Positions 4,159 through 36,392 of a stretch of 64,000 bases of DNA are shown here, piece by piece. This DNA is from Candidatus Iainarchaeum sp. GTDB lineage: Archaea > Iainarchaeota > Iainarchaeia > Iainarchaeales > JAAZKV01. Numbering within the stretch: the stretch's first letter is position 1; each line of letters starts with the position of its first letter. The notes beneath the pieces are model-generated. The model saw nothing but the letters and a program-made list of their open reading frames with translations. It did not search any database and was not told where the DNA came from. The position numbers and the translations under genes are program-made. The DNA lies in NCBI GenBank assembly GCA_026397015.1, contig JAPLVR010000001.1, positions 21,745 through 85,744 of the forward strand, read 5' to 3'.

Positions 4159-5193
4159 ATGGGTGTAAACCTTTCGGATTTGGCAGAGAAGAAAGAAATT
4201 TCCCTCGACTTTCTCGCGGGAAAACGTGTAGGAATAGACTCTTACAATATGCTTTACCAGTTTCTCGCTTCGATAAGGGGCGCCGATGGTTTGCCTCTTG
4301 CCGATTCGCACGGAAACACAACAAGCCATCTTGCCGGCCTTTTTTACAGGACAATTAATTTGATTGAGAAAGAGATTCAGCCGATTTACATTTTTGACGG
4401 CAAGCCACCCGAATTGAAAAGAGAAACGCTGAGAAAGCGAAGGGCTGTAAGAACGGATGCGGAAGAAAAATCTTCGACGGCATTGAAGGAGGGCAATTTG
4501 GAGGAAGCGAGAAAAATGGGTTCCCGCGCATTGAAAATGACTCCTGAAATGGTTGAAGAAGCGAAACAACTTTTGCGGTTGATGGGAATTCCCGTAATTG
4601 AATCCCCTCAGGAGGGGGAAGCACAGGCTTCGGTTATGGCATCAAAAGGCCAGCTTTTCGGCGTCGCAAGCCAGGACTTTGACTGTCTTCTCTTCGGCGC
4701 AAACAATTTGTTTAGAAATGTCGGCATCACTGGAAAAAGAAAGGTTGCGGGAAAAAATTTTTATGTGGAGATAAGGCCGCAGCATATAGAACTTAATAAT
4801 GTGTTAAAGCAATTGCGCATCGACAGAAGAAAACTTATTTGGCTCGGCATTCTGATTGGAACGGATTTCAACGAAAAGTTTCCGAAAATCGGCCCGAAAA
4901 CCGCCCTTAAACTTGTTCAGCAGCACAATTCTTTTGAAGAAATAATTTCGGCTGCAAAATTTGAGCCAGAGTTTGATTACAAAGAAATTGAAAATGTTTT
5001 TATGAATCCCTCAAGCAGGGAAGTTGATGCAAAGGAGTTTGAAATTAAAAAGCCGGACAAGGAAAAGCTGGTTGATTTTTTGGTTGCGAAACACGATTTT
5101 TCAGCCGAGAGGATTGGGAACGCTCTCGATAGGATTATTTCTGCGCGCGAGGAAAAAGAAAAGCAAAAAAGCATCAATCAGTGGTTCGGCTGA
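4159..5193 (+). CDS. fen: Flap endonuclease 1 (FEN-1)
   Basis: MGVNLSDL... start, XPG-N/XPG-I layout, GIPVIESPQEGEAQAS, C-terminal PIP-like QKSINQWF. Confidence 0.93.
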   Translation: MGVNLSDLAEKKEISLDFLAGKRVGIDSYNMLYQFLASIRGADGLPLADSHGNTTSHLAGLFYRTINLIEKEIQPIYIFDGKPPELKRETLRKRRAVRTDAEEKSSTALKEGNLEEARKMGSRALKMTPEMVEEAKQLLRLMGIPVIESPQEGEAQASVMASKGQLFGVASQDFDCLLFGANNLFRNVGITGKRKVAGKNFYVEIRPQHIELNNVLKQLRIDRRKLIWLGILIGTDFNEKFPKIGPKTALKLVQQHNSFEEIISAAKFEPEFDYKEIENVFMNPSSREVDAKEFEIKKPDKEKLVDFLVAKHDFSAERIGNALDRIISAREEKEKQKSINQWFG

Positions 5194-6559: not shown

Positions 6560-6739
6560 GCCCCGATAGTGCAGTGGTCAAGCACACGAGCCTTTCAGAG
6601 CCTACCCCTTTTCTTTTTTGCGAAAAAAGAAAAGTGTTAGTATCCCAAAAGAAAAAGACATATTCGTTATCGCGAACATGGATTGTTTTTTTGTTGCTGA
6701 AGGTAGCTTGTAACCCGGGTTCGAATCCCGGCCGGGGTA
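6560..6739 (+). tRNA. tRNA-Glu(UUC) with a ~107-nt intron at the canonical 37/38 position
   Basis: Acceptor GCCCCGA/CCGGGGT, D arm GTGC-AGTGGTCAA-GCAC, anticodon stem CGAGC/GCTTG, loop CTTTCA, T arm CCGGG-TTCGAAT-CCCGG. The intron 3' end CTGAA pairs with the anticodon-loop TTCAG. Confidence 0.7.
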
Positions 6740-8561: not shown

Positions 8562-9032
8562 ATGCCGAAAAGGCGAATAAGCTGGAAAGAAATCGAGAGC
8601 GGAAGCAGATTGCTTTACAAGAAAATTCCGAATAAAGATTACGATGGTATTGTTTGCATCGCGACAGGCGGCCTTATTTTTGGAAAGCTTTTATCCGATT
8701 TGTTCAATTTGCCCCTTGGAATTGTTTCTGTCAGCAGGTACAAAAAGAAGGGCGGGAAAATAGGTGAATGCCAGGTGAACACAAACATTCACTGGAACAA
8801 AAAAATTTCAAGAAAAAAGCCAAGCATCCTTCTAGTAGATGACATAATTGATGAAGGAATAACGATGCAGAAAGTGATTTGCGCGCTGAAAAAGAAATTC
8901 ACGAGAATCGACATCGCTGTTTTGTTTTACAAAAAAGTAAGAACCAAGATTGATTTCAGCAAGTACAGGATTTATTACTACAAATCGGTCGGCGACGAGT
9001 GGGTTATCTTTCCGTGGGAAATAGACAAGTGA
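8562..9032 (+). CDS. Purine (hypoxanthine/xanthine-guanine type) phosphoribosyltransferase
   Basis: PRPP-binding motif SILLVDDIIDEGITM. About 155 aa. Confidence 0.75.
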   Translation: MPKRRISWKEIESGSRLLYKKIPNKDYDGIVCIATGGLIFGKLLSDLFNLPLGIVSVSRYKKKGGKIGECQVNTNIHWNKKISRKKPSILLVDDIIDEGITMQKVICALKKKFTRIDIAVLFYKKVRTKIDFSKYRIYYYKSVGDEWVIFPWEIDK

Positions 9033-9033
9033 A

Positions 9034-9459
9034 TTATATTCCTGAGGGTTGAGCCTTCTTTTCTCCCTTCAAATACTTTTTTCTCAGTTCCGGGTCGTCA
9101 ATATGTCGCATTATTTTCGGCGTGCATTTATCCCTTACGCAAAGTGACATGAATTGTTTGCAGAATTCCCTTTCGCCTTCTTTTTTGAAATATTTGCATC
9201 TTTCCCAAGATGGTTTCTGCAGTTCGTTTGCCGCAGGATTTACTTTCGGCTGTTGGTCGCTGCTTATTTCCTCTGCCATTCTGGCTGTTTCACCGTCGAT
9301 TATCTCGCCGCTTTTTGCGGAATAAAACTTCTTCTCGCCGTCAATTATTTCGGCGGCTTTTTCTTCTTGCTGCGCCGCTGGATTTGCCTGGCTCATTTTC
9401 TGCCTTTCCCTCTCCTTATGCTCGTCAACAATTTTTTGTGCGATGCTCCCAAGCGCCAT
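9034..9459 (-). CDS. Hypothetical protein with a Cys-rich C-terminus
   Basis: Start at ATG 9459 behind AGGTGA. C-terminal CKYFKKEGEREFCKQFMSLCVRDKC. Confidence 0.45.
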   Translation of the reverse strand: MALGSIAQKIVDEHKERERQKMSQANPAAQQEEKAAEIIDGEKKFYSAKSGEIIDGETARMAEEISSDQQPKVNPAANELQKPSWERCKYFKKEGEREFCKQFMSLCVRDKCTPKIMRHIDDPELRKKYLKGEKKAQPSGI

Positions 9460-9664
9460 ATTCTCACCTAAAACAACTGCAAAGATTGCTGATATATAGG
9501 GGACTATACTGATTTTAAAATCAATCTTTGCAAACTTCCGAGCATCGAAAAAGCTTTTATACAAAGATGGTTATTGTCGATATGCAAAATGTGGGTTCTC
9601 GCAAAATTTGAGTTCTTCCCAGAGAAGCTAATTATGATAAGCGGCTTGCAAATTACAGTTAAAA

Positions 9665-10372
9665 GTGGTTTCCTTGGACGTAGAAGATTATTCTGATTGG
9701 GCAGTTCAATATTATGATAGAAAAGTGTCTTCAATAATTAGGTCTTATTTGGTTTCAAAAAAAATAAAAACAATACTTGACTGCGGCTGCGGAGACGGAA
9801 ATTTTCTTTATGCTTTAAAATCAAAAAATCTTCTAAAAGGGAAGAAGGTCTATGCAATAGACTTGTCAAAAAGGAGATTGGAAATTGTAAAAAAGATTGA
9901 TGATGGAATAATTGCAAAAATTGATTCTGCTGAAGAGTTAAAGACAATTAAAAGCAGTTCAATTGATTTGGTTGTTTCAATGCAGGTGATAGAACATGTT
10001 AATGATAAAAAAATGGCTTTGCAGTTAAAAAGGGTTTTGAAAAAAAAAGGTTTGGCTTACATTTCAACCATATTCAAAAAAAAATATGCTTTCTGCCCTT
10101 TTGTGGCAGGAGGTAAAAGAGTAATTGATCCGACCCATTTAAGGGAATACGTTAAAGATAGGGAACTTCTTGGTCTTTTCAAAACTGAAGAATTTAAATT
10201 GATAAAACAAAGTAAAACTCCTTTAATGCATTCATTATTTTACCCTTTGTTTTTGTTTTTCTCGAAAGATAGGTTTCTTTTTGAAAAAAATTTGTTTGCA
10301 AAAAACCTCGATAGGATAAAAATTCCGTTTCCGCGGTTCTATATTTGGGAAGTGTTATTGCAAAAAAGGTGA
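9665..10372 (+). CDS. Class I SAM-dependent methyltransferase
   Basis: Motif I ILDCGCGDGNF and a Methyltransf_11-like layout. Confidence 0.75.
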   Translation: MVSLDVEDYSDWAVQYYDRKVSSIIRSYLVSKKIKTILDCGCGDGNFLYALKSKNLLKGKKVYAIDLSKRRLEIVKKIDDGIIAKIDSAEELKTIKSSSIDLVVSMQVIEHVNDKKMALQLKRVLKKKGLAYISTIFKKKYAFCPFVAGGKRVIDPTHLREYVKDRELLGLFKTEEFKLIKQSKTPLMHSLFYPLFLFFSKDRFLFEKNLFAKNLDRIKIPFPRFYIWEVLLQKR

Positions 10373-20056: not shown

Positions 20057-20058
20057 CT

Positions 20059-20092
20059 CAGCCTTTTTTCGAAAAAAAGGCTGGCGAAAAAA
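20059..20092 (+). repeat. Hairpin element copy 2, 2 nt after the tRNA-Ala 3' end
   Basis: CAGCCTTTTTTCGAAAAAAAGGCTGGCGAAAAAA. Confidence 0.8.
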
Positions 20093-20205
20093 CTCGCAAA
20101 AAAAAAAATTTGCGAGAACGAAAAAGTTTGCGAGAAATGGCGGCATAAAAAATTTTTCGCAAATGGTTTCGTAAAAAAGTTAAAGAATTTGAAGGTGTAA
20201 AAAAG

Positions 20206-20580
20206 ATGGCAAGAAAAGCGAAAGTAGAGTGGAATATAGAGGGGCTGACAATTGCGCAACGTCGGGCGCTTGGCATAGAAGGACTAACCCATGCACAAGT
20301 AAGGCGATTGGGAATAATAGGAATGACTCCTATTGAAGCTCAAAATCACATACTTAGCGAGTTGGCAAGCTTTAGTCGGCAATGGAATTTAGATTTACGC
20401 CCAGAGGAAAAGATAAAAAAATATTTGGAATATAAGGAAAAGGAAATTATGAAAATGCGAGCTGAGGGACGAAGTACAGAGCGCGGTAGTCGTTATCGTC
20501 GGCCTAGGAGCAAGGCACAATTAATACAACTGGTAAAAAAAACAAGAAGTGTACAGAGAGGAAAGTTAAGGCCCAGGTGA
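20206..20580 (+). CDS. 124-aa basic ORF inside the tRNA-Ala/23S spacer
   Basis: GAAGGTG lies 8 nt upstream of the ATG. Internal repeat GLTIAQRRALGIEGLTHAQVRRLGIIGMTPIEAQ. No known motif. Confidence 0.35.
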   Translation: MARKAKVEWNIEGLTIAQRRALGIEGLTHAQVRRLGIIGMTPIEAQNHILSELASFSRQWNLDLRPEEKIKKYLEYKEKEIMKMRAEGRSTERGSRYRRPRSKAQLIQLVKKTRSVQRGKLRPR

Positions 20581-20811
20581 GGAAAAAATTTTCCTCATTA
20601 GTTAAAAATTTACGCTTATCATAAAATGATAGGAATTTGCAGGAATGAAAATTTCTGCAAGTTGGGATTGCCTGCTTCGGCGGGCAAGATACCATTATTT
20701 TTGTGGTGTCTCCCATTCCGAGTTTTTTCGGGATGGAAGTTAGTAATATAATTTGGGAATTTTTTTCCGCAAAAGAAATTTTGCAGAAAGAAGTTTTCGA
20801 GTTGTGTTGCT

Positions 20812-20831
20812 TTGCATAGGAACTGCCAAAC
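20812..20831 (+). other. 5' strand of the 23S processing helix
   Basis: TTGCATAGGAACTGCCAAAC pairs with 23835-23854 (20 bp, two G-U pairs). Confidence 0.7.
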
Positions 20832-20867
20832 AAAATTAGAGTCAAATAGTAAGTTCTCATATTGTAT

Positions 20868-23854: not shown

Positions 23855-23945
23855 CACTATTAAAACTAATTTTCAAAAATACTATTTGGCGTGTCACGGA
23901 AGGCGTGAACAAAAGCTATATAAGCTAGAATTTCCTTTATTAAAG

Positions 23946-25007
23946 ATGCTTTCTACCGAGGCACGCCTGGTTTTAGCAAGTAATCTGAAAAAAGTACAAG
24001 CAACTATTTTCTCGCAATCAGATGGGCAGCCAGACTTGGATCAATATTTGGCAAAAGAAGATAAAAAAAAATATTTACGCAGTTTGGGATTCAATTTTGG
24101 TTCAGCAAAACAGATTTGTGGAACGACAACAATTTATACAATAAATCTTACAAAGAAACCAAAGCAAAAGTCGTTTGAGCCCAAACGTGGGCGGTTTTTC
24201 ATAGCGGTAACCGAAGGTGATTCTTTTTTTTATGTTCTTACCGACAGTAACTTAGTTTTTTTGAAACATGCAGTTATTCCTTTTATTACATATTTAACAT
24301 ACCCAAACATAACTCGCGCAACTTTGACCTCATTGGAGTTGCAAAATGTTATACAAAATTTTTCAGCAACATTGAATGCTGGCGTTTTTGTTAATAAATC
24401 AAGTGGAAAAGGAATGTTTGGAAAAAAACCTCAAACAATAATTAAGTTCGAAAAAAATAATCCAGTTTCGCTAAATTCGGTTTATAAACAAGCGGTGAAT
24501 CAAGACCTGTGGGTTCATTGGTTAAGTCTATTGATGCGAGGAAAAAATGATTCCATGAAAGTTAATATTTCCCGAGATGGGACTATCAGTTTTCCAAAAG
24601 AATCATTAGGTAAAGCTCTTATTTTGTTTGAGATTATAGGAAAAATTGCCGAATCCCAAAATGTTCTGTTAAAGGATAAAGAGATAAAACCCGAACAAGA
24701 AATGAAATCAATAATTCTTAGGTACGGGGAAGAAATTTTTTCCGAAAAGAAACATTTGCTTCAACTATTAGACACTATAAAAAAGTATAAAGATTCAAGC
24801 TATTCAATAATTCACTCCGGAAATCCGCACATTTATATGTATTTACAAGATACTGTTGACAAATCATCATTTTCTATTAGAAATTTGAGACAAGATTCGA
24901 TTTTAATCACGCCTCAAATAAGGTGTGGCGCAAGTGCTCTTTCAAGATTTATAAGTTACTTGAATGAAGATTTTAGAGAGGCAATTGAAACAAATGTTTG
25001 TGATTAG
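23946..25007 (+). CDS. Hypothetical 353-aa protein, first gene of the island
   Basis: ATG 23946 lies ~20 nt after the TATA-like AAGCTATATAAGC. AT-rich coding sequence with no recognised motif. Confidence 0.55.
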   Translation: MLSTEARLVLASNLKKVQATIFSQSDGQPDLDQYLAKEDKKKYLRSLGFNFGSAKQICGTTTIYTINLTKKPKQKSFEPKRGRFFIAVTEGDSFFYVLTDSNLVFLKHAVIPFITYLTYPNITRATLTSLELQNVIQNFSATLNAGVFVNKSSGKGMFGKKPQTIIKFEKNNPVSLNSVYKQAVNQDLWVHWLSLLMRGKNDSMKVNISRDGTISFPKESLGKALILFEIIGKIAESQNVLLKDKEIKPEQEMKSIILRYGEEIFSEKKHLLQLLDTIKKYKDSSYSIIHSGNPHIYMYLQDTVDKSSFSIRNLRQDSILITPQIRCGASALSRFISYLNEDFREAIETNVCD

Positions 25008-25008
25008 T

Positions 25009-26037
25009 ATGCCAAAAATGAGTCTTTCAGAAGCAGTTTCAATAAAAGCGAAAGAAATGGACAGGTACCACCAACAAATATTGTTATGTCTCGGATTATT
25101 ATTTTTTTTTGAAAAAAATAAATCTCTTGGAATGTTTGTTGGGGCCGAGATAGACCTGAAATATGCACTAAATAGTGTGCAAAAATGTGTTCGCCCAGAT
25201 GTAATAATTCAAGCATGGAAAAAAGATGGGAAATTATTTGGGATTCCAATCGAAATTAAATTGTCAGTAGATTATGATATTGAAATAAAAAAAGAATTAA
25301 ATGAAATGAAACGTTATGATAACCAATTATCAGGGTGGAAAGAATTTGAAGGCTTGACGCCTGATGATCATGTAATAGTTTATGCCCCGAACGGTCTTGA
25401 CTCTGGAAAGGTTAAAAGGGTACTTGAACAGGAGTTGAAAAGTGGAAATATTAAGTTTAACAGAGAATTTTGTATTTGGGAATGGCAAACAGTGACGAGT
25501 CAAAAATACGGGAAGGGCGATGTTTTATTGATAAAGCAAATTTTTGGAGATTTACATGGAATGTGTGATTCACTAAACAAGCAACTTACCGATGGGATTC
25601 CTATTGATTATGAGTCTGAAGAATTCGCCAAGAAAAGAGAAGGGGCTGTTTTTACTAGAAAAAAACCACCAAAAGAATACATGATGGTTTGGCTTTGGAC
25701 CAATGTTTTGCAACAATCTGTGGATTCTTCCAGCAATATAACCCTTGATGAGCTTACTAAAAAAGTTAACCAATTTTATAAGTCGGAGCTGATGAATAAC
25801 AATGACGGACAATCTTTTTTTATTAAAAAGGACTGGATTAGGGAAGCTATGGATTGGTTTTGTAAAATTAAACTTTGTAAAGAAAGTTCCGAAACGTGTT
25901 ATAACATTGTAATGAACAAAAAAATTAGAAACATATCAAAATTTATTTGTACACAAGTAGCAAAAAAGGAAAAACTGCGCAAAATTAACACTGACACAAA
26001 CCAAATGGCACTTGAAACATTTACACAAGGAAGTTAA
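25009..26037 (+). CDS. PD-(D/E)xK nuclease-like protein, 342 aa
   Basis: Its ATG is 1 nt after the upstream stop. VRPDVIIQAWKKDGKLFGIPIEIKL fits PD-x(n)-ExK. The C-terminal third may be DNA-binding. Confidence 0.5.
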   Translation: MPKMSLSEAVSIKAKEMDRYHQQILLCLGLLFFFEKNKSLGMFVGAEIDLKYALNSVQKCVRPDVIIQAWKKDGKLFGIPIEIKLSVDYDIEIKKELNEMKRYDNQLSGWKEFEGLTPDDHVIVYAPNGLDSGKVKRVLEQELKSGNIKFNREFCIWEWQTVTSQKYGKGDVLLIKQIFGDLHGMCDSLNKQLTDGIPIDYESEEFAKKREGAVFTRKKPPKEYMMVWLWTNVLQQSVDSSSNITLDELTKKVNQFYKSELMNNNDGQSFFIKKDWIREAMDWFCKIKLCKESSETCYNIVMNKKIRNISKFICTQVAKKEKLRKINTDTNQMALETFTQGS

Positions 26038-26342: not shown

Positions 26343-26353
26343 TTAATCGCCAT

Positions 26354-26405
26354 ATTCTATATAGAATAAACCACAAAGGATTTATAAATATATTCTATAT
26401 AGAAT
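26354..26405. promoter_or_regulatory. Two copies of the perfect palindrome ATTCTATATAGAAT flanking a TATA box (TTTATAAATA, 26381-26390)
   Basis: Palindromes at 26354-26367 and 26392-26405, centres 38 bp apart. They sit between the divergent Excalibur gene and the small-ORF/R-M operon. Confidence 0.6.
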
Positions 26406-26419
26406 TAATTCTGGGAATT

Positions 26420-26590
26420 ATGCCTGAAAAATACCAATACGAAGCCAAAATAAGCAAAACAACCGACAACAAGAAGCTCGCCACAGGCGAAAAAAAAGCC
26501 TATAACTATGGCACAATTAATCTAAGAAAACCAGAACTCGCCAAATACATAGGAAAAATAGCTAAAATTGAGGTAAAAATACAGGATTGA
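26420..26590 (+). CDS. 56-aa protein, possible AbrB/SpoVT-like controller of the R-M gene
   Basis: MPEKYQYEAKISK...GTINLRKPELAKYIGKIAKIEVKIQD. ATG ~30 nt after the TATA box. Its stop overlaps the R-M start region. Confidence 0.4.
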   Translation: MPEKYQYEAKISKTTDNKKLATGEKKAYNYGTINLRKPELAKYIGKIAKIEVKIQD

Positions 26591-26595
26591 TTTCT

Positions 26596-29523
26596 ATGGT
26601 TGGTGCAGGGGGCAAACTTCAAGAAAATTCTTTCAATGCCCTTTTAACAAAAGAACTTATTGACCTAGAATTAGACGCTAATTTTGAAGAGCACTTTACA
26701 ACATTTCAGGGGCTAAAAAAACCAGACATCTCAATTAAATTCAAAGATACTTATTTTTTTGTAGAATCAAAACAAGAGCCAGCTAAACTAATTGATGCAA
26801 TCAGCAAAGCGTATCTTTATCAACAATCCATTAGGCAGGCTAAACTCAACACAATTGTTTTTGGAGTTCTTTTTCCAAAAGATGGTGGAACAAAAAAGAT
26901 TGAAGCTGCATGTCTGTTGAATAAGGAGCCATTTTTTCAGCAAGAAACATTTTTCACGCTTGGGGAATTGGCTCGTTGGATAAAAGAAGTTATAACCGAA
27001 GAGAAACCAATTGCTGAACTCAGTACAACAAAATTTATCAAAATATTAACAGAAGCGGTTCATTCCATAGATAAAAATCTCAAAACACTAAAACTTGATG
27101 AAATAGAAAGTATTTTTGGTGGAAAAACCTTTTTTGAAACAATACTTGGATATTCGGAAGAAGAAAAAATACCGATTGAAAATTTGCGAGTGGCATCCTC
27201 ATATCTGCTTGTAAATCAAATATTTTTCTATCAGATTCTTGCAACTGAAACAAAAAAATATCCACTGTTCGATGTTGAAAAAATAACATCTTCCAACGAA
27301 ATATATGATAGGCATTTTGCAAAAGTTCTTGAAGACGATTATGAACCAATATTCAGTTTTAACATAATATCAAAATTGAGTGGAAAAGAAGCTCTTGCAA
27401 ACGTATTGACTGTTGTTTCAGCAATTCAGGCACTTTCAACGAGCAAGCAAAATCACGACTTACTCGGAAAAATATTTCATAATCTCATACCGTTGGACAT
27501 AAGGAAAGTTGTAGCTGCATTTTATACAAACTCCGAAGCAGGCAACCTTCTTGCTGATTTGGCTATAGAAAAATTTGATGAAAAAATATTAGATACTGCC
27601 TGTGGCTCTGGAACATTGCTTGTTTCCTCTTATAGAAGGAAAAAAGAACTTTTTGAAAAACAATTTGGGGATTTCAGTGAAGATGCACACAAAAAGTTTC
27701 TTTCAAAAGATATATTCGGGGTGGATATAATGCCTTTTGCCGCTCATTTGGCCGCGATAAATCTTGCATTGCAAGCTCCGCTCTACGAAACTGACATATT
27801 GAATATTGCCATACACGATTCGACAGATTTATCGCCAGAAAGAGAACTGGAAGCCGCAGAAGAAACTATAAGAGAAGGTTTTAAACAACAAAAACTTTTT
27901 GATTTTGGAAAAAGTAGGGCAGAAAAAACAAGCGCAAAGGGCGTTGTGTCTCTTTACAAAAATAAGCACAAAATAGTTTTGCCATATTTTGATGTTGTAA
28001 TAATGAATCCGCCATTTACCCGTTTTCAAAGAATACCACCAGAATTCAAACAGATATTGGAAAATAGATTTAGCGGCAAATATAGAAAGATAATAAGCGG
28101 GCAATTAGGCTTGCACGGATATTTTTTATTGCTCGCAGATAAATTCCTAAAAGAAGATGGTAGGATAGCGGCCGTATTGCCGCTCACAACAATCAGCACA
28201 AGTAGTTTTTATCAACTCATAAAAATGCTCCTTGAAGAATATTGTATAGAATATGTAGTAGCGTCAGATGGCAGAGCCGCGTTTTCTGAAAACACAAGTT
28301 TAAGAGAAATACTTTTAATTGCCAAAAAACAGAAGCCAAAAAAAGACCATGAGCTTAAGCTCGTGATACTAAATATGTCGCCTGCACAACTAAATGAAAA
28401 GACCACAAAAGAAATAAGCATGAGGCTAAGGCAATTTTCCGCTCTTGAACTGAAAGAAAAAGAAGAAGACTATTTTTACATAAAAACTTTCAAGCAAGAA
28501 GACCTGAAAGCCAACATAAGACAATTGTATCATTCAATAACACTTTCTTCAAAAGAGCTTATACAAATAAATAAGAAATTGGAAAAAGTTCTTGAAAATG
28601 AAAAGACAGAAACTTTGAAAATAATTTCAGAAAAAAACAGGTGGGAAATAAAAGAAAACCCAAGAGGATTAAATATTTATAACTATTCTGCACTAACTAT
28701 ATTGAATGATGAAAAACGCGCCTTGAAAAAAACAGATTTCTGGCTTGCCAAAGAAAAAACAAGAGAATTTGTTACAGTGCTCAACAAAATCAATGGAAAT
28801 AAATTTAAAATACCAACCAAAGCACTTGCAAAACAATTTAGAAGATTCTCAACAATAAACACAATCAACATAGACAAGAAAACCGATTATCTTGTAAAAG
28901 ACGACTTTCAAGGGTTTGAAGTATTTTTGGAAAATGGTTTTGTAAAAAGAAGCGAAATCAAAAAAACAGCAAAAGCAATAGAGTTTGGTGAATTTAACAC
29001 ATTTATACAAAGAAACTCATCCAATCTTTTCTTTTTCTATAGGGGTGATTTAACCGCCCCAAACACGAATTGCTTAAGTGTAAACTGTCAAGAAAAAGTA
29101 TTTGCCGGTTCTGGCGGAAGTTGGGTTTTTTACGGTCTAAAAAATAATGAGGCAAACAATCTTTCTTTGTGGCTAAATTCAAGTTTGCAATTGTTCCAAG
29201 TTTTACGAGATAGAAAAGAAACAAGAGGCGGATGGATGGAAATAGACAAATATGTTTTAGACGAGTCTAAAATTCTGAACTTGGATAAATTAACAAAAAC
29301 TGATAAAGAAAAATTGGATAATTTATACGAAAAGATCAAAGATACTCAGTTCCCTTCTTTAATCGAGCAATTGAAAACAAAAAATTCAATAAGAAAGCAA
29401 ATTGACACTACATTTTTGTCAATATTGGGCATGAATAAAGCAGAAGCAGAAAGCTTGCTTGAAGAGTTATATCCAGCAATCTATAAAGAATTGGTAAAGT
29501 TAAAGGGAGTAATGGGCAAATAA
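26596..29523 (+). CDS. Type IIG/IIL (MmeI-like) fused restriction endonuclease / N6-adenine DNA methyltransferase
   Basis: N-terminal KKPDISIKFKDTYFFVESKQ (PD-x13-ExK). AAFYTNSEAGNLLADLA, motif I ILDTACGSGTLL, motif IV VIMNPPF. A long C-terminal region would be the target-recognition domain. Confidence 0.85.
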   Translation: MVGAGGKLQENSFNALLTKELIDLELDANFEEHFTTFQGLKKPDISIKFKDTYFFVESKQEPAKLIDAISKAYLYQQSIRQAKLNTIVFGVLFPKDGGTKKIEAACLLNKEPFFQQETFFTLGELARWIKEVITEEKPIAELSTTKFIKILTEAVHSIDKNLKTLKLDEIESIFGGKTFFETILGYSEEEKIPIENLRVASSYLLVNQIFFYQILATETKKYPLFDVEKITSSNEIYDRHFAKVLEDDYEPIFSFNIISKLSGKEALANVLTVVSAIQALSTSKQNHDLLGKIFHNLIPLDIRKVVAAFYTNSEAGNLLADLAIEKFDEKILDTACGSGTLLVSSYRRKKELFEKQFGDFSEDAHKKFLSKDIFGVDIMPFAAHLAAINLALQAPLYETDILNIAIHDSTDLSPERELEAAEETIREGFKQQKLFDFGKSRAEKTSAKGVVSLYKNKHKIVLPYFDVVIMNPPFTRFQRIPPEFKQILENRFSGKYRKIISGQLGLHGYFLLLADKFLKEDGRIAAVLPLTTISTSSFYQLIKMLLEEYCIEYVVASDGRAAFSENTSLREILLIAKKQKPKKDHELKLVILNMSPAQLNEKTTKEISMRLRQFSALELKEKEEDYFYIKTFKQEDLKANIRQLYHSITLSSKELIQINKKLEKVLENEKTETLKIISEKNRWEIKENPRGLNIYNYSALTILNDEKRALKKTDFWLAKEKTREFVTVLNKINGNKFKIPTKALAKQFRRFSTINTINIDKKTDYLVKDDFQGFEVFLENGFVKRSEIKKTAKAIEFGEFNTFIQRNSSNLFFFYRGDLTAPNTNCLSVNCQEKVFAGSGGSWVFYGLKNNEANNLSLWLNSSLQLFQVLRDRKETRGGWMEIDKYVLDESKILNLDKLTKTDKEKLDNLYEKIKDTQFPSLIEQLKTKNSIRKQIDTTFLSILGMNKAEAESLLEELYPAIYKELVKLKGVMGK

Positions 29524-31336: not shown

Positions 31337-31370
31337 GTTTTCAAAAAGCAGTTGCGTGACCCGGGCGGGA
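31337..31370 (+). repeat. Island intergenic repeat, copy A
   Basis: GTTTTCAAAAAGCAGTTGCGTGACCCGGGCGGGA. Compare copy B at 36341-36392. Confidence 0.65.
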
Positions 31371-31990: not shown

Positions 31991-32695
31991 TTAATTTTTC
32001 TTCTTGAATCGCAGAACACCAACAATAATGTAGGTTTTCGGGCTTTTGTGGATATTTCCGACAAGGAAATATGTTTTCCACTCTTTGTCGGTTAAACGCA
32101 GGTTGTCGAAGACTTTTTTGCAGTGCTCTTTGCTGTCGGGGTTCTTTCTCATCCATTCGTAACAGCCCCATTCGACGATTTGCTGTTTGTGCTGCGGGTT
32201 CTTGCACGAGCATTTTGCTGTGCATTCATAAACTACATATGGTTTGAATTTGAATTCGTTTTGGTTTATTATATAATAATCTGGATCGAAAAGTTTGGTC
32301 TGGATTGATGTTGCCGAGTTTTGTGTGACAAGCTCAAAGTCAATGATTTTTGGTTCAATTACCCCGAAACTTTTTCTCGCCTTAATAAGGTCTCCAAGGT
32401 TGTCTTTTGCGAGTGATTGTATTAATTTGCTTCTTTCTTCTTTTGGATATTCGCTTTTTTTTCTAATCCATTTTTCGATTCTCTGCCAGTCCTCTTTTGA
32501 GCGGTAAATTTTCCAGGTATTTTCTCTGTGGTCCTGAGTATTTAGCTCGACGGTAGCATCAAAGACATCCCACTGGCGAAGCAACTTTTTTGGAATCGGG
32601 TAAAGTCTTACGAGGCCGTGTTCTTTTGAGTAAGCGCAAACGCATCTTGATATTCGGCCGCCGCTCAAACTGTTTGGTGCGCCTTGGCCTAACAT
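31991..32695 (-). CDS. Hypothetical 234-aa Cys/His-rich protein
   Basis: ECTAKCSCKNPQHKQQIVEWGCYEW...HCKK. Start ATG 32695 lies 20 nt after the DUF488 gene stop. Confidence 0.5.
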   Translation of the reverse strand: MLGQGAPNSLSGGRISRCVCAYSKEHGLVRLYPIPKKLLRQWDVFDATVELNTQDHRENTWKIYRSKEDWQRIEKWIRKKSEYPKEERSKLIQSLAKDNLGDLIKARKSFGVIEPKIIDFELVTQNSATSIQTKLFDPDYYIINQNEFKFKPYVVYECTAKCSCKNPQHKQQIVEWGCYEWMRKNPDSKEHCKKVFDNLRLTDKEWKTYFLVGNIHKSPKTYIIVGVLRFKKKN

Positions 32696-32715
32696 GACCA
32701 AGTCTTTGAGTTCAA

Positions 32716-33549
32716 TCAAATGTGAACAACCTCGTGGTTCAAAAAATCGCTTAAGACTCCGCGATGGCAAAAATCCTTGTCCGCTTCGAAGCACATGAGG
32801 GCAATTTTTTCCTTTTTACCGAGGGATTCCAGTTCGGTTATTTTTTCCTTTTTATCAGGCAAGGATGCTTCGTATTCTTTGAACAGTTCCTTGTAATCTT
32901 CTTCGGAATTCAGTTCCTTCCTTTTTTCGGATTCTATTCCGAGTTCGGGAAAATGAATGTATCTTATATTGACGTCGGCTAAATGTTTCGATAAACTATT
33001 TTTTGAAAATCCTTTTTTCATGCTCATTGCATTTTTTCTTACGTCAACCAAAATTGAAATCTTGTTTTTGACCAATTCGTTAAGGAATCCGTCCAGTGTT
33101 TTTCCTTCGTATCCGATTGAGCAGACGCCTTTCTCAGGCCCACCTTTTTCCATTCTTGGCGAATCACTATTGATTGTAAATTCTACAAAATTTGCATAAA
33201 CAAAATTTTTTATTGCATCAGTAGTTGGATGTTCTTCAACTATACGGCCGGCTTCTGAATTGATTTCATTGGCATTATCAATTTTGTTTATTAATTCTAT
33301 TCCATTCTTGGTTAGTTCCAATCTATTTTCGTTAAGAAGCCCCTCACTTTCAAGATAAGAAAGGTCGGCATAAATTTGATTAGAAAACGGCCCGTATTTG
33401 TACGGGAAAAAGTCGTAGCCGATTTTTTCAAACCCGAACTTTTGCCTCAGCAAAAAAATAGTTTTAACTAGGTATGTCTTTGACCTAATTTTCCTTTCAC
33501 TCAGCTTTTTAATTATTTGAAGCAATAGTTTTTGCCTTCTGTAAAGCAT
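32716..33549 (-). CDS. wHTH (YwgA/SocA-like) N-terminal domain fused to DUF488
   Basis: N-terminal FPYKYGPFSNQIYADLSYLESEGLL. C-terminal IGYEGKTLDGFLNELVKNKISILVDVR...ALMCFEADKDFCHRGVL is a typical DUF488 pattern. Confidence 0.7.
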   Translation of the reverse strand: MLYRRQKLLLQIIKKLSERKIRSKTYLVKTIFLLRQKFGFEKIGYDFFPYKYGPFSNQIYADLSYLESEGLLNENRLELTKNGIELINKIDNANEINSEAGRIVEEHPTTDAIKNFVYANFVEFTINSDSPRMEKGGPEKGVCSIGYEGKTLDGFLNELVKNKISILVDVRKNAMSMKKGFSKNSLSKHLADVNIRYIHFPELGIESEKRKELNSEEDYKELFKEYEASLPDKKEKITELESLGKKEKIALMCFEADKDFCHRGVLSDFLNHEVVHI

Positions 33550-33621: not shown

Positions 33622-33658
33622 AATCCTCCCAAAATCGCGTTTTTAAAAAGCAGTCCCG
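33622..33658 (+). repeat. Island intergenic repeat, copy C
   Basis: AATCCTCCCAAAATCGCGTTTTTAAAAAGCAGTCCCG. Confidence 0.6.
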
Positions 33659-33681
33659 AACCCTGTTCGGCTTGGAGCGTT

Positions 33682-33763
33682 CAGCCTTTTTTTCGAAAAA
33701 AAGCCGTGGCACCCTGCAGGGTGTCACGCTTCGTCCCCTAAGGGGACTTAGTGGCGAAAAAAA
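33682..33763 (+). repeat. Expanded hairpin element
   Basis: The T7/A7 hairpin CAGCCTTTTTTTCGAAAAAAAGCC is followed by two extra hairpins (GTGGCACCCTGCAGGGTGTCAC and GTCCCCTAAGGGGAC) and then GGCGAAAAAAA. Confidence 0.65.
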
Positions 33764-34304: not shown

Positions 34305-35477
34305 ATGGCAATCTATTCGCATTCGAAATTGGCTGCTTTTGAGGATTGCAGGTACAAGTACAAATTGTGCTACATTGACGGGATTAAGTTTGAGCGGGCC
34401 AAGGCGGCGCATTTGGTGCTTGGCGGCGTTGTTCACGGGGTTTTGGAAAAGCTTTACTCCGATTTAAAGTACCAAAAAACCGATTCTTTGAAGGATTTGC
34501 TGGATTTTTTTGACGATTGCTGGGAGAAAGAGTGGACTGATGAAGTAATTAACCCGAAAGAAAGCGAAGGCATTACCGAAGAGCACTTTAAGTCCATGGG
34601 AAAAAAGTATATTGAGGAATATTACGGCCGCTACAAACCCTTTAACCAAATCAAAATAATTGGTTTAGAAACACAGGACAAACTAAAACTAAAGAACGGG
34701 AGCTATTATCATATCAGAATCGACAAATTGGCCTGCGACGGGGACACATACTACGTTTGCGACTACAAAACCAACTTAGGCATGAAAGACCAGAGTGATG
34801 CCGACCAGGACCGGCAGCTGGCAATGTATTCTTTGTGGGTAAAGAAAACGTTCAGGGATGCTAAAAAGATAGTTTTGTTGTGGCACATGCTGGCTTTCGA
34901 CAAGGAAGTGGCCTCGGAAAGAACTGCTGAACACCTCGAAAAACTTGAAGACGAAGTGGTAAAACTGATAGAAGAAATCGAGTCAACCAAGCAATTTCCG
35001 ACAAACGTTACCGGAAGATGCGATTACTGCGAATACAAACAAATGTGCCCGAGTTTTAAGCATGAAGCGGAGCTGGAAACAAAAACGGTGAAAGAATTCA
35101 AAGCGGATGAAGGGGTAAAACTGGTGAACAAATACGCCAAACTAAAAGATACGGAAAGCCGGGTAAAGGAAGAAGCTGAGGAAACAAAATCGGACTTAAT
35201 TGCATTCTCAATACAAAAAGAAGTAGACGTAATTTATGGCTCGAACAAAAAAGTGTCGGTAAAAGAATATGACAAAATCATGTGGTCCGAGGAAAACAAA
35301 GAAAAGCTGGCGGAGCTGCTCAAAAAAGGCGGCTTATACGAAGAATTCTCGATGATAAGCTATCCAAAGCTCAATGCGCAAATAAACGAAGGAAACCTAG
35401 GAAAGCCCATAACAAAATTGGCGCAAAAAGAAAAAGACTACCGAGTAAATCTGTCAAATAAGAAAAAAGAAGAATGA
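34305..35477 (+). CDS. Cas4/RecB-like PD-(D/E)xK nuclease with a Fe-S Cys cluster
   Basis: N-terminal FEDCRYKYKLCY, RIDKLACDGDTYYVCDYKT (D...D/ExK), QLAMY, C-terminal GRCDYCEYKQMCP. Confidence 0.8.
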   Translation: MAIYSHSKLAAFEDCRYKYKLCYIDGIKFERAKAAHLVLGGVVHGVLEKLYSDLKYQKTDSLKDLLDFFDDCWEKEWTDEVINPKESEGITEEHFKSMGKKYIEEYYGRYKPFNQIKIIGLETQDKLKLKNGSYYHIRIDKLACDGDTYYVCDYKTNLGMKDQSDADQDRQLAMYSLWVKKTFRDAKKIVLLWHMLAFDKEVASERTAEHLEKLEDEVVKLIEEIESTKQFPTNVTGRCDYCEYKQMCPSFKHEAELETKTVKEFKADEGVKLVNKYAKLKDTESRVKEEAEETKSDLIAFSIQKEVDVIYGSNKKVSVKEYDKIMWSEENKEKLAELLKKGGLYEEFSMISYPKLNAQINEGNLGKPITKLAQKEKDYRVNLSNKKKEE

Positions 35478-36278: not shown

Positions 36279-36340
36279 AAGTCAAACCTCTCTTTCCTTC
36301 TTGTATCTTTCCAAGAACTCCGGCTCGGGAACAACGCAAA

Positions 36341-36392
36341 ATCCTTCCAAATTCGCATTTTCAAAAAGCAGTCGCGTGGCCTGGGCGGCGAG
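36341..36392 (+). repeat. Island intergenic repeat, copy B
   Basis: ATCCTTCCAAATTCGCATTTTCAAAAAGCAGTCGCGTGGCCTGGGCGGCGAG. Confidence 0.65.

Follow-up and report, generated by a model that had tools for sequence, protein, structure and literature searches.

A two-gene module of a predicted clamp-docking PD-(D/E)xK nuclease and a partner protein from a DPANN archaeon: a candidate for mobile defence or exclusion

Described nucleases and the gene pair

NucS/EndoMS is a PD-(D/E)xK nuclease that ends in a PCNA-interacting peptide (PIP box) in archaea, or in a beta-clamp motif in bacteria, and whose cleavage is stimulated by the sliding clamp (PMC6159515, PMC6159521, PMC8228993). We describe here a pair of genes, G1 and G2, whose second member appears to be built on a similar principle. 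The pair occurs in a 64,000-nucleotide stretch of Candidatus Iainarchaeum sp. (contig JAPLVR010000001.1), and ‘the window’ refers throughout to the whole of this stretch. NucS/EndoMS is, by analogy, the best working model for G2, in which the type of tail likewise tracks the domain of the host; the likeness is one of working principle, not of family membership. In NucS/EndoMS, the nuclease is C-terminal and lies behind an N-terminal DNA-binding domain, whereas in G2 it is N-terminal (residues ~55–130) and is followed by a region that resembles a winged helix–turn–helix (wHTH). NucS/EndoMS proteins are homodimers of ~250 amino acids (aa) that have no partner gene and are inherited vertically, as housekeeping proteins; G2, in contrast, always accompanies G1, and resides in mobile or defence islands. 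Among 64 members of the G2 family, none matches the NucS family.

Other described proteins resemble the pair in part. Cas4 and RecB nucleases display D...ExK...QxxxY in the same order, and with the same spacing, as G2. Cas4 has four iron–sulfur cysteines, however, and no cysteine is conserved in G2, in alignments of either 64 or 16 sequences; because this quartet is absent, G2 is not a Cas4. It further differs from Cas4 in its clamp tail and additional C-terminal domains, and in not being linked to CRISPR–Cas. The Cas_Cas4 and PDDEXK_1 models find no match in G2, and the window encodes its Cas4-like protein in a separate open reading frame (ORF; 34305–35477). FEN1, RNase HII, Pol, ligase and MutL share with G2 a terminal peptide, Qxx[LIM]xx[FYW] or QLxLF, that follows a flexible, basic linker. 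Clamp clients of the FEN1 type are core proteins of every genome, whereas G2 is a rare accessory gene of variable islands. Finally, two-gene defence systems with a nuclease effector (e.g. PDC-M19) are also operons with an uncharacterised partner, patchy in distribution, and situated on mobile DNA or in defence islands. Among the described systems that our literature searches turned up, none has a clamp-docking nuclease.

The pair, and the features within it, are laid out in the window as follows:

23912–23923, + strand: TATA-box-like element AAAGCTATATAA, with a purine-rich 5' part resembling a B recognition element; its centre is ~26 nucleotides (nt) 5' of the G1 ATG
23946–25007, + strand: G1, from ATG 23946 to TAG 25005–25007; 353 aa, basic (pI 9.4), of an unmodelled family
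24801–24947, + strand: conserved C-terminal core of G1, Y286-S-I-I-H290-S-G292-N-P-H295...D302...S307...P323-Q324...R334
25009–26037, + strand: G2, from ATG 25009 to TAA 26035–26037; 342 aa, a predicted PD-(D/E)xK DNA nuclease
25195–25320, + strand: predicted nuclease core of G2, with P63-D64 (beta-2), E82-x-K84 (beta-3) and, downstream, [QE]xxxY103 and G-W110
25741–25923, + strand: probable winged-helix region of G2, residues ~245–305 (...KKDW276IREAMDWFCKIKLCKE...Y298), assigned by inspection and inference
26002–26022, + strand: PIP-box core of G2, Q332-M-A-L-E-T-F338, 4 residues before the C-terminus and behind a basic linker

Both ORFs are intact, and a single base, T25008, separates the stop codon of G1 from the start codon of G2, the arrangement given in an earlier note made from the sequence of the window. 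In the databases the two proteins are recorded as hypothetical (NTZ73_00285 and NTZ73_00290), in a metagenome-assembled genome of Candidatus Diapherotrites (DPANN). Alignments with homologues and with hidden Markov models (HMMs) favour the starts listed above over the longer alternatives, TTG 23886 and ATG 24964. The same note proposed a TATA-like element for the pair, and this is AAAGCTATATAA, at 23912–23923; the pattern has two matches in the window against 0.27 expected. Because the element is ~26 nt before the ATG, its geometry is that of a leaderless archaeal transcript, and it is the putative promoter of a leaderless, bicistronic G1–G2 mRNA. The pair starts 134 nt 3' of the 23S rRNA gene, and is bounded downstream by a convergent ORF of 86 aa with an Excalibur domain. 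It lies within a stretch of 33% GC, against ~43% for the host genome. The window includes an archaeal 16S/tRNA-Ala/23S operon, and an archaeal RNase P RNA. The restriction–modification (R–M) system that the note placed beside the pair is present too, in the form of a 978-aa N6-methyltransferase of Type IIG character at 26587–29523.

Two families conserved together

G1 and G2 represent two previously unmodelled protein families that are conserved, as a module, across archaea and bacteria. Neither has a match in Pfam, NCBIfam, PADLOC v2, PHROGs or the sequences of the PDB. The earlier note had taken the pair to be an undescribed system, a claim exposed to profile searches and to the co-occurrence of homologues; profile searches of Pfam, NCBIfam, PADLOC, PHROGs and the PDB assigned neither protein to a known system, and co-occurrence, described below, is complete. 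When 64 relatives of G2 and 10 of G1 were compared with the 5,027 models of PADLOC v2 (PADLOC-DB v2.0.0), only isolated noise matches (E > 0.001) were obtained. A word-indexed homologue search returned one distant relative of G1, and none of G2. An exhaustive HMMER search over 1.84 billion representatives yielded 108 relatives of G2 at E < 1e-3, and 36 at E < 1e-10; all of the relatives are of ~320–380 aa. The distribution is sparse and patchy: ~108 clusters among the 1.84 billion representatives, and 4 matches among 185,579 species genomes in a pattern scan. With tblastn and contig scans over viral contigs (2.9 million), phages (50,697 records) and plasmids (72,556 records), no family member was found.

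Genomic context was recovered for 16 non-redundant loci (numbered with an ‘L’ below), the window included, and HMMs of both families were run over all of their six-frame ORFs. In 16/16, a G1 homologue occurs immediately 5' of the G2 homologue, on the same strand. The junction between the two measures −56 to +5 nt at 15 of the loci, and exactly +1 in the window, L005, L007 and L015. G1 homologues at the 15 other loci display 19–32% identity, and the pairwise identities of G1 and of G2 rise and fall together (r = 0.87, Spearman 0.71; 120 locus pairs). The constant order and the correlated identities argue, therefore, that the pair is inherited as a unit. Named archaeal hosts comprise DPANN (the window), Methanosarcinales, Cenarchaeum (Thaumarchaeota) and Bathyarchaeota; named bacterial hosts are Anaerolineaceae and Thermotogaceae. 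One source, L011/L028, is recorded as a ‘bacterium’, and encodes the archaeal ribosomal proteins S28e and L7Ae.

The PD...ExK core that the earlier note saw near the N-terminus of G2 is borne out by these relatives. The string is contained in VRPDVIIQAWKKDGKLFGIPIEIKL, residues 61–85 of G2. D64 is invariant among 64 aligned sequences, in which P63, G78, E82 and K84 reach 90% conservation or more; in an alignment of 16 sequences that spans both domains, Y20, D64, E82, K84, P220 and W276 are all invariant, and P63 again reaches at least 90%. D64 and E82 are 18 residues apart, the classic hairpin spacing. PD...ExK is thus a signature of the G2 family, since it is conserved throughout the relatives. 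When the N-terminal 140 residues are used as a profile, the best match in the PDB, a marginal one (E = 0.035), is 4IC1, in which D, ExK and QxxxY all line up with those of G2; this structure is the Cas4 protein SSO0001 (PMC5704561). Single relatives of G2 weakly match an AHJR-like restriction endonuclease (REase; 0.004), RE_TdeIII (0.008) and the PADLOC model REase_II. EngC, a PDB match of the whole-G2 profile, was dismissed as spurious. We infer from the conserved residues and their spacing that G2 is a PD-(D/E)xK DNA nuclease.

The C-terminal region of G2 has a conserved pattern of its own, R..WI..AL..L...[GK][LM]A.K......Y.[IV], and residues ~245–305 are a probable winged-helix, DNA-binding region. 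The suggestion, in the earlier note, of a DNA-binding C-terminal third stands in part: the pattern is conserved and winged-helix-like, but matches of the C-terminal profile to the PDB are sub-significant (FadR wHTH, E = 1.2; zeste, E = 0.12). Because the single-sequence model of G2 is poor (pLDDT 38), the PD-(D/E)xK fold and the winged helix both remain predictions.

Proteins of the G1 family are 348–392 aa in length, and 14 of the 16 have pI values of 8.2–9.6. The N-terminal third is variable, and the conserved core lies in the C-terminal ~100 residues. G292, N293, P294, D302, S307, Q324 and R334 are invariant in 16/16 proteins, from archaea and bacteria alike; H290, P323 and Y281 are conserved in 15, and position 295 is either H or Y. 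This invariant, polar set suggests a catalytic or ligand-binding pocket, or perhaps a fixed interface. The earlier note could place no motif in G1, and nor can we: the protein is without a match in Pfam, NCBIfam, PADLOC, PHROGs and the PDB, profiles included. The whole-length profile matches nothing in the PDB, and that of the C-terminal domain gives noise. No GIY-YIG, archaeo-eukaryotic primase (AEP), HNH or PD-(D/E)xK pattern fits. By inspection, G1 was ruled out as an AEP (the SGNPH stretch resembles motif II, but there is no conserved DxD), as an HNH enzyme (the H-N-H spacing is too short) and as a D...QxK nuclease (K/R at 326 is not conserved). Divergent paralogy with G2 was ruled out by a probability of 0.2% in hhalign.

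At one locus, G1 has decayed. L020, on an archaeal chromosome and near PriS, PriL, GINS and the host PCNA, has a G1 pseudogene (8882–9968) with a frameshift at an A7 run and an in-frame TAA. The adjoining G2 is intact, and keeps its PD, ExK and PIP motifs. A seeming frameshift of G1 in L019 was ruled out as natural, for it coincides with a 10-N scaffold gap.

Predicted docking of G2 to the sliding clamp

The G2 protein of the window ends in ...KLRKINTDTNQMALETFTQGS, with the PIP core at residues 332–338; the tail peptide that bears this core is KINTDTNQMALETFTQGS. The consensus of the family, similarly, ends in QxxLxxF. The C-terminal 25 residues of 90 full-length G2 members were screened for clamp-docking motifs, with shuffled tails and internal windows of the proteins as controls. 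The PIP core, Qxx[LIM]xx[FYW], is found in 19 tails (1.05 expected from shuffled tails, and 1.2 from internal windows). The bacterial beta-clamp motif, Q[LIMV]x[LIM]F or QxxLF, is found in 15 (0.6 and 0.2 expected, respectively). A PIP-like core without the Q is present in 26 further tails, weakly above background. Neither clamp motif occurs in the tails of the 16 G1 proteins. The window has 50 ORFs of 150 aa or longer, and a terminal PIP core is confined to two of them: G2 and the ORF for the host FEN1 (4159–5193; E = 3.5e-101 to archaeal FEN-1), whose tail is QKSINQWFG. FEN1 is a textbook client of PCNA.

The two kinds of tail are partitioned between the domains of life. G2 members were clustered by the body of the protein, after the 30 C-terminal residues had been cut away. 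All 17 of the beta-type tails then belonged to a single cluster of 52 members, the one in which every member of known bacterial origin is found; the clusters with all of the known archaeal members have none (17/52 versus 0/46; Fisher p = 5e-6). PIP boxes occur in G2 members of the archaeal type; the Anaerolineaceae tail, ...KQLPLFDL, is an example of the beta type.

The three lineages nearest to the window (L008–10, L011–12 and L027) have a gene for a PCNA homologue directly after G2. The stop and start codons of the two genes overlap in the L008, L011 and L027 lineages, and the G2 proteins concerned lack a canonical PIP box. The linked homologues are full-length:

L008, 4275–5015: PCNA homologue
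L011, 11061–11807: PCNA homologue
L027, 3219–3992: PCNA homologue

They match PCNA_N of Pfam, at up to 1.8e-10, and, more weakly, Rad9, Rad1 and Hus1. Their profile matches archaeal PCNA structures with E = 3.6e-39, and their identity to a host PCNA is 16%. A tyrosine integrase gene lies ahead of G1 in L008 and L011, and none is recognisable in L027. Three ORFs of 242–248 aa in the window were considered as the host PCNA and ruled out; they encode an ABC ATPase, a ZIP transporter and a MarR-type protein.

Clamp docking is the best-supported functional feature that the sequences suggest for G2, because the enrichment of motifs in the tails, their partition by domain, the FEN1 control and the linked PCNA gene all point the same way; binding itself is predicted. 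The PIP and beta-clamp tails, the PCNA gene of the sister clades, and the frequency of integrases and insertion sequences (ISs) among the neighbours go beyond the earlier note.

These features can be combined into a mechanism. G1 and G2 would form a self-contained, horizontally mobile module, expressed from its own promoter as one leaderless, bicistronic mRNA. Because the genes appear to be translationally coupled, the proteins would be made in matched amounts, and they probably act as a complex. G2 would be the effector, an Mg-dependent DNA nuclease of the RecB/Cas4-like PD-(D/E)xK kind with a winged-helix region for binding DNA. Its flexible, basic linker would end in a peptide that docks with PCNA in archaea (PIP) and with the beta clamp in bacteria (QLxLF), and some clades would supply a PCNA gene of their own in place of the docking peptide. 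By docking to clamps loaded on primed or replicating DNA, G2 could be recruited there, or activated. For G1, whose H-x-G-N-P-[HY]...D...S...Q...R pocket is invariant, we propose the part of a partner that senses or regulates, and so licenses cleavage. The role of the whole would most likely be defence against, or exclusion of, viruses and plasmids, with the pair carried as cargo by defence islands and small integrative elements.

If this is true, the pair is a defence or exclusion module composed of two families missing from Pfam, NCBIfam, PADLOC and PHROGs. It would embody a new principle of targeting, in which an immune nuclease is tethered to the replication clamp, and would link the biology of the fork to immunity; the docking peptide would be exchanged, PIP for QLxLF, according to the domain of the host, and some lineages would bring their own PCNA. 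The PD-(D/E)xK superfamily and two-gene modules based on nucleases are already known; both families are undescribed in the libraries searched, and the clamp-docking motifs of the tails are a new observation. G1, a conserved protein of ~350 aa whose polar pocket is invariant and for which no relatives could be detected, may represent a new fold or enzyme. And the family spans lineages—DPANN, Bathyarchaeota, Thaumarchaeota, Methanosarcinales, Chloroflexota and Thermotogota—that are little studied and have few defined defence systems.

Role of the pair and its rivals

We consider it about an even chance that the pair is a mobile defence or exclusion module against replicating invaders, composed of a clamp-tethered PD-(D/E)xK nuclease and its G1 partner. 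The ‘defence’ in this statement derives from gene context. A more detailed form of the idea—that G2 is a clamp-guided immune nuclease of both prokaryotic domains, that replication is sensed through the clamp and that G1, by means of a new fold or active site, is in control—is put forward tentatively, as somewhat the less probable outcome. The same doubtful standing attaches to the wider claim that clamp-guided targeting of replicating viruses and plasmids would be, if true, a mode of non-self recognition used by none of the described defence systems. No clamp-tethered nuclease of defence islands emerged from our searches of the literature.

Several points weigh against defence by a clamp-tethered nuclease. 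The defence role is a matter of guilt by association, and in L029, L030 and L013 the pair lies amid housekeeping or unannotated genes. Strict clamp motifs occur in ~38% of G2 tails, the others being degenerate or without one, and that of the window, QMALETFT, has T in place of the second aromatic residue of a canonical PIP box. For only a minority of family members is it known whether the host is archaeal or bacterial. The sole link to a solved nuclease is the marginal match to 4IC1 (E = 0.035), and single-sequence AlphaFold2 models were unusable for both proteins (pLDDT 38 for G2, and 35 for G1). Last, the versions with integrase and PCNA could equally well fit a module for the maintenance or replication of a mobile element.

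This last idea is the rival we take most seriously, even if we think it unlikely. It holds that the pair is part of the apparatus by which a mobile element replicates, recombines or is maintained, with G2 as a clamp-recruited initiator or processing nuclease, G1 as an accessory, the element's PCNA recruiting the host polymerase, and the window copy a remnant stranded beside the 23S rRNA gene. The G1–G2–PCNA arrangement of the lineages nearest the window speaks for it, together with the integrase ahead of the pair in L008 and L011; the insertion of L011 at tRNA-Glu; the NikA-like and TrbC conjugation genes beside L008; the Rad52, SSB, RadC, PolB-exo and DnaN genes beside L024; the IS transposases that adjoin L005, L007, L018 and L021; and the start of the window pair 134 nt after a stable-RNA gene. 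Most loci lack genes for integration, replication and conjugation, however, and helicase, primase and Rep genes are not linked to the pair, which is instead the sole constant unit among varying R–M, Abi, DarTG and HEPN neighbours. Searches for att repeats around the island of the window and the L011 element found none that convince, and neither the viral contigs nor the phage and plasmid records yielded a member. Were it correct all the same, a clamp-docking nuclease with its own PCNA and integrase would still be new element biology. A classical restriction enzyme, either heteromeric Type II or modification-dependent Type IV, with G1 as its specificity or regulatory subunit, seems to us more improbable again. 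DNA methyltransferases do lie within 5 kb of the pair at 6 of the 16 loci (the window, L005, L007, L018, L021 and L026), and Type IV enzymes, typical of such islands, need no methylase; the weak matches of single G2 relatives to RE_TdeIII, AHJR-like REase and REase_II also lean this way. But the nearby methylases come from unrelated families, each with its own nuclease (Type IIG fusion, ResIII and NA-iREase1 fusion), and at the other 10 loci, among them L008, L011, L013, L015, L027 and L030, no DNA methylase is in view. The pair is thus not consistently linked to a methyltransferase, as a Type II R–M system would be, and neither an NTPase nor a known modification-reader domain is present. We know of no described restriction enzyme that has a clamp-docking tail, and literature searches found none. 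G2 may nevertheless have an activity of the Type IV kind.

Two further explanations we judge very improbable. One is that the pair acts in housekeeping, as a clamp-activated repair nuclease that, helped by G1 as an accessory subunit, would deal with mismatches, flaps or branched DNA at the replication fork. G2 shares the logic of NucS/EndoMS, a PD-(D/E)xK nuclease that carries a PIP box at its C-terminus in archaea and the beta-clamp counterpart in bacteria, and L020 lies near PriS, PriL, GINS and PCNA of its host. Against these stand the sparse, patchy distribution (~108 clusters per 1.84 billion representatives; 4 of 185,579 species genomes), the atypical GC of the island, neighbours that are ISs, integrases and defence genes, the decayed G1 copy of L020, and an order of domains opposite to that of NucS with no similarity to its family. 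The other, a shade less probable still, is a toxin–antitoxin or addiction module that stabilises an island or element, G2 being the nuclease toxin and G1 the upstream antitoxin. Two tightly coupled genes, the putative neutraliser first, on mobile DNA, and headed at some loci by small, regulator-like ORFs, would suit such a system. G1 is unlike typical antitoxins in being large (~350–390 aa) and, in 14/16 cases, basic; its invariant polar pocket suggests an activity of its own; and in L020, a single and therefore weak case, an intact G2 persists beside a broken G1.

Genomic neighbourhoods

The earlier note assigned the pair to a defence setting, and the genes that flank it in the window, in an island that reaches ~36.3 kb, agree with this:

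26587–29523: N6-methyltransferase, a methyltransferase/REase of the Eco57I/MmeI (Type IIG) type, 978 aa
31425–31970: HNH endonuclease (PDC-M01B/PtuB-like)
31991–32794, − strand: PDC-M19B (E = 9e-8), overlapping PDC-M19A
32716–33549, − strand: PDC-M19A, DUF488-containing (E = 2e-75)
34305–35477: solo Cas4-like PDDEXK_1 nuclease, 390 aa
35586–36278: HEC-09/NYN-family protein

PDC-M19A and PDC-M19B together make up a complete PADLOC candidate system (31991–33549, − strand). A 19-nt palindromic repeat, ATATTCTATATAGAAT[AT]AA, occurs twice, at 26352–26370 and 26390–26408. Just 3' of the two copies is a small ORF (~26420–26590), without a match in Pfam or PADLOC, that overlaps the start of the Type IIG-like gene by 4 nt; repeats and ORF look like the operator and the controller protein of the R–M gene. 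Intergenic repeats of 30–50 nt, resembling TTTTCAAAAAGCAGTCGCGTGGCCTGGGCGG and forming in part a GC-rich hairpin, are scattered through the island (31338–31368, 33622–33671, 33690–33720 and 36340–36389), and are possibly terminators, or else a small repeat element.

Elsewhere, the neighbours of the pair are diverse:

L005 and L007: methyltransferases, NYN, AAA_14/DUF4143 and IS elements
L008: tyrosine integrase ahead of the pair; conjugative context, with NikA-like and TrbC genes
L011: tyrosine integrase ahead of the pair; inserted at tRNA-Glu
L018: Type III R–M, AbiEii, GHKL ATPase and IS transposase
L021: methyltransferase–NA-iREase1 fusion, IS66-type transposase and HEPN_AbiV
L024: Rad52, SSB, RadC, PolB-exo, DnaN and TIR
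L026: ImmA-like regulator to one side and, to the other, Type III R–M with DarT–DarG; also SNF2/SMC-like
L029 and L030: housekeeping genes

No convincing direct repeats of the att type were found around the island of the window or the L011 element. In one clade, a leader ORF of 51–55 aa (..TTIAE..GQLLVT.PK..) overlaps or abuts the start of G1 (L005, 8002–8157; L007, 4554–4721; L021, 8668–8835). A transposase of the IS66/IS240 type is present ~0.5 kb upstream, on the opposite strand, in L007 and L021; in L005, one of the IS240 type is ~5 kb upstream. The leader ORF may encode a small regulator, and the pair may be a transposon passenger; an AbrB-like assignment of the leaders was dropped for want of Pfam support.

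A few features of the window outside the island deserve mention. The spacer between tRNA-Ala and the 23S gene (20058–20857) is unusually long, ~800 nt, and contains an ORF of 124 aa (20206–20580) in which GIEGLT.AQ.RRLGI occurs two times. The 23S gene is not followed by a 5S rRNA gene; the low-GC island begins at that point instead. At 6560–6739, an Rfam tRNA match that ARAGORN does not call extends across 180 nt, and is probably an intron-containing archaeal tRNA.

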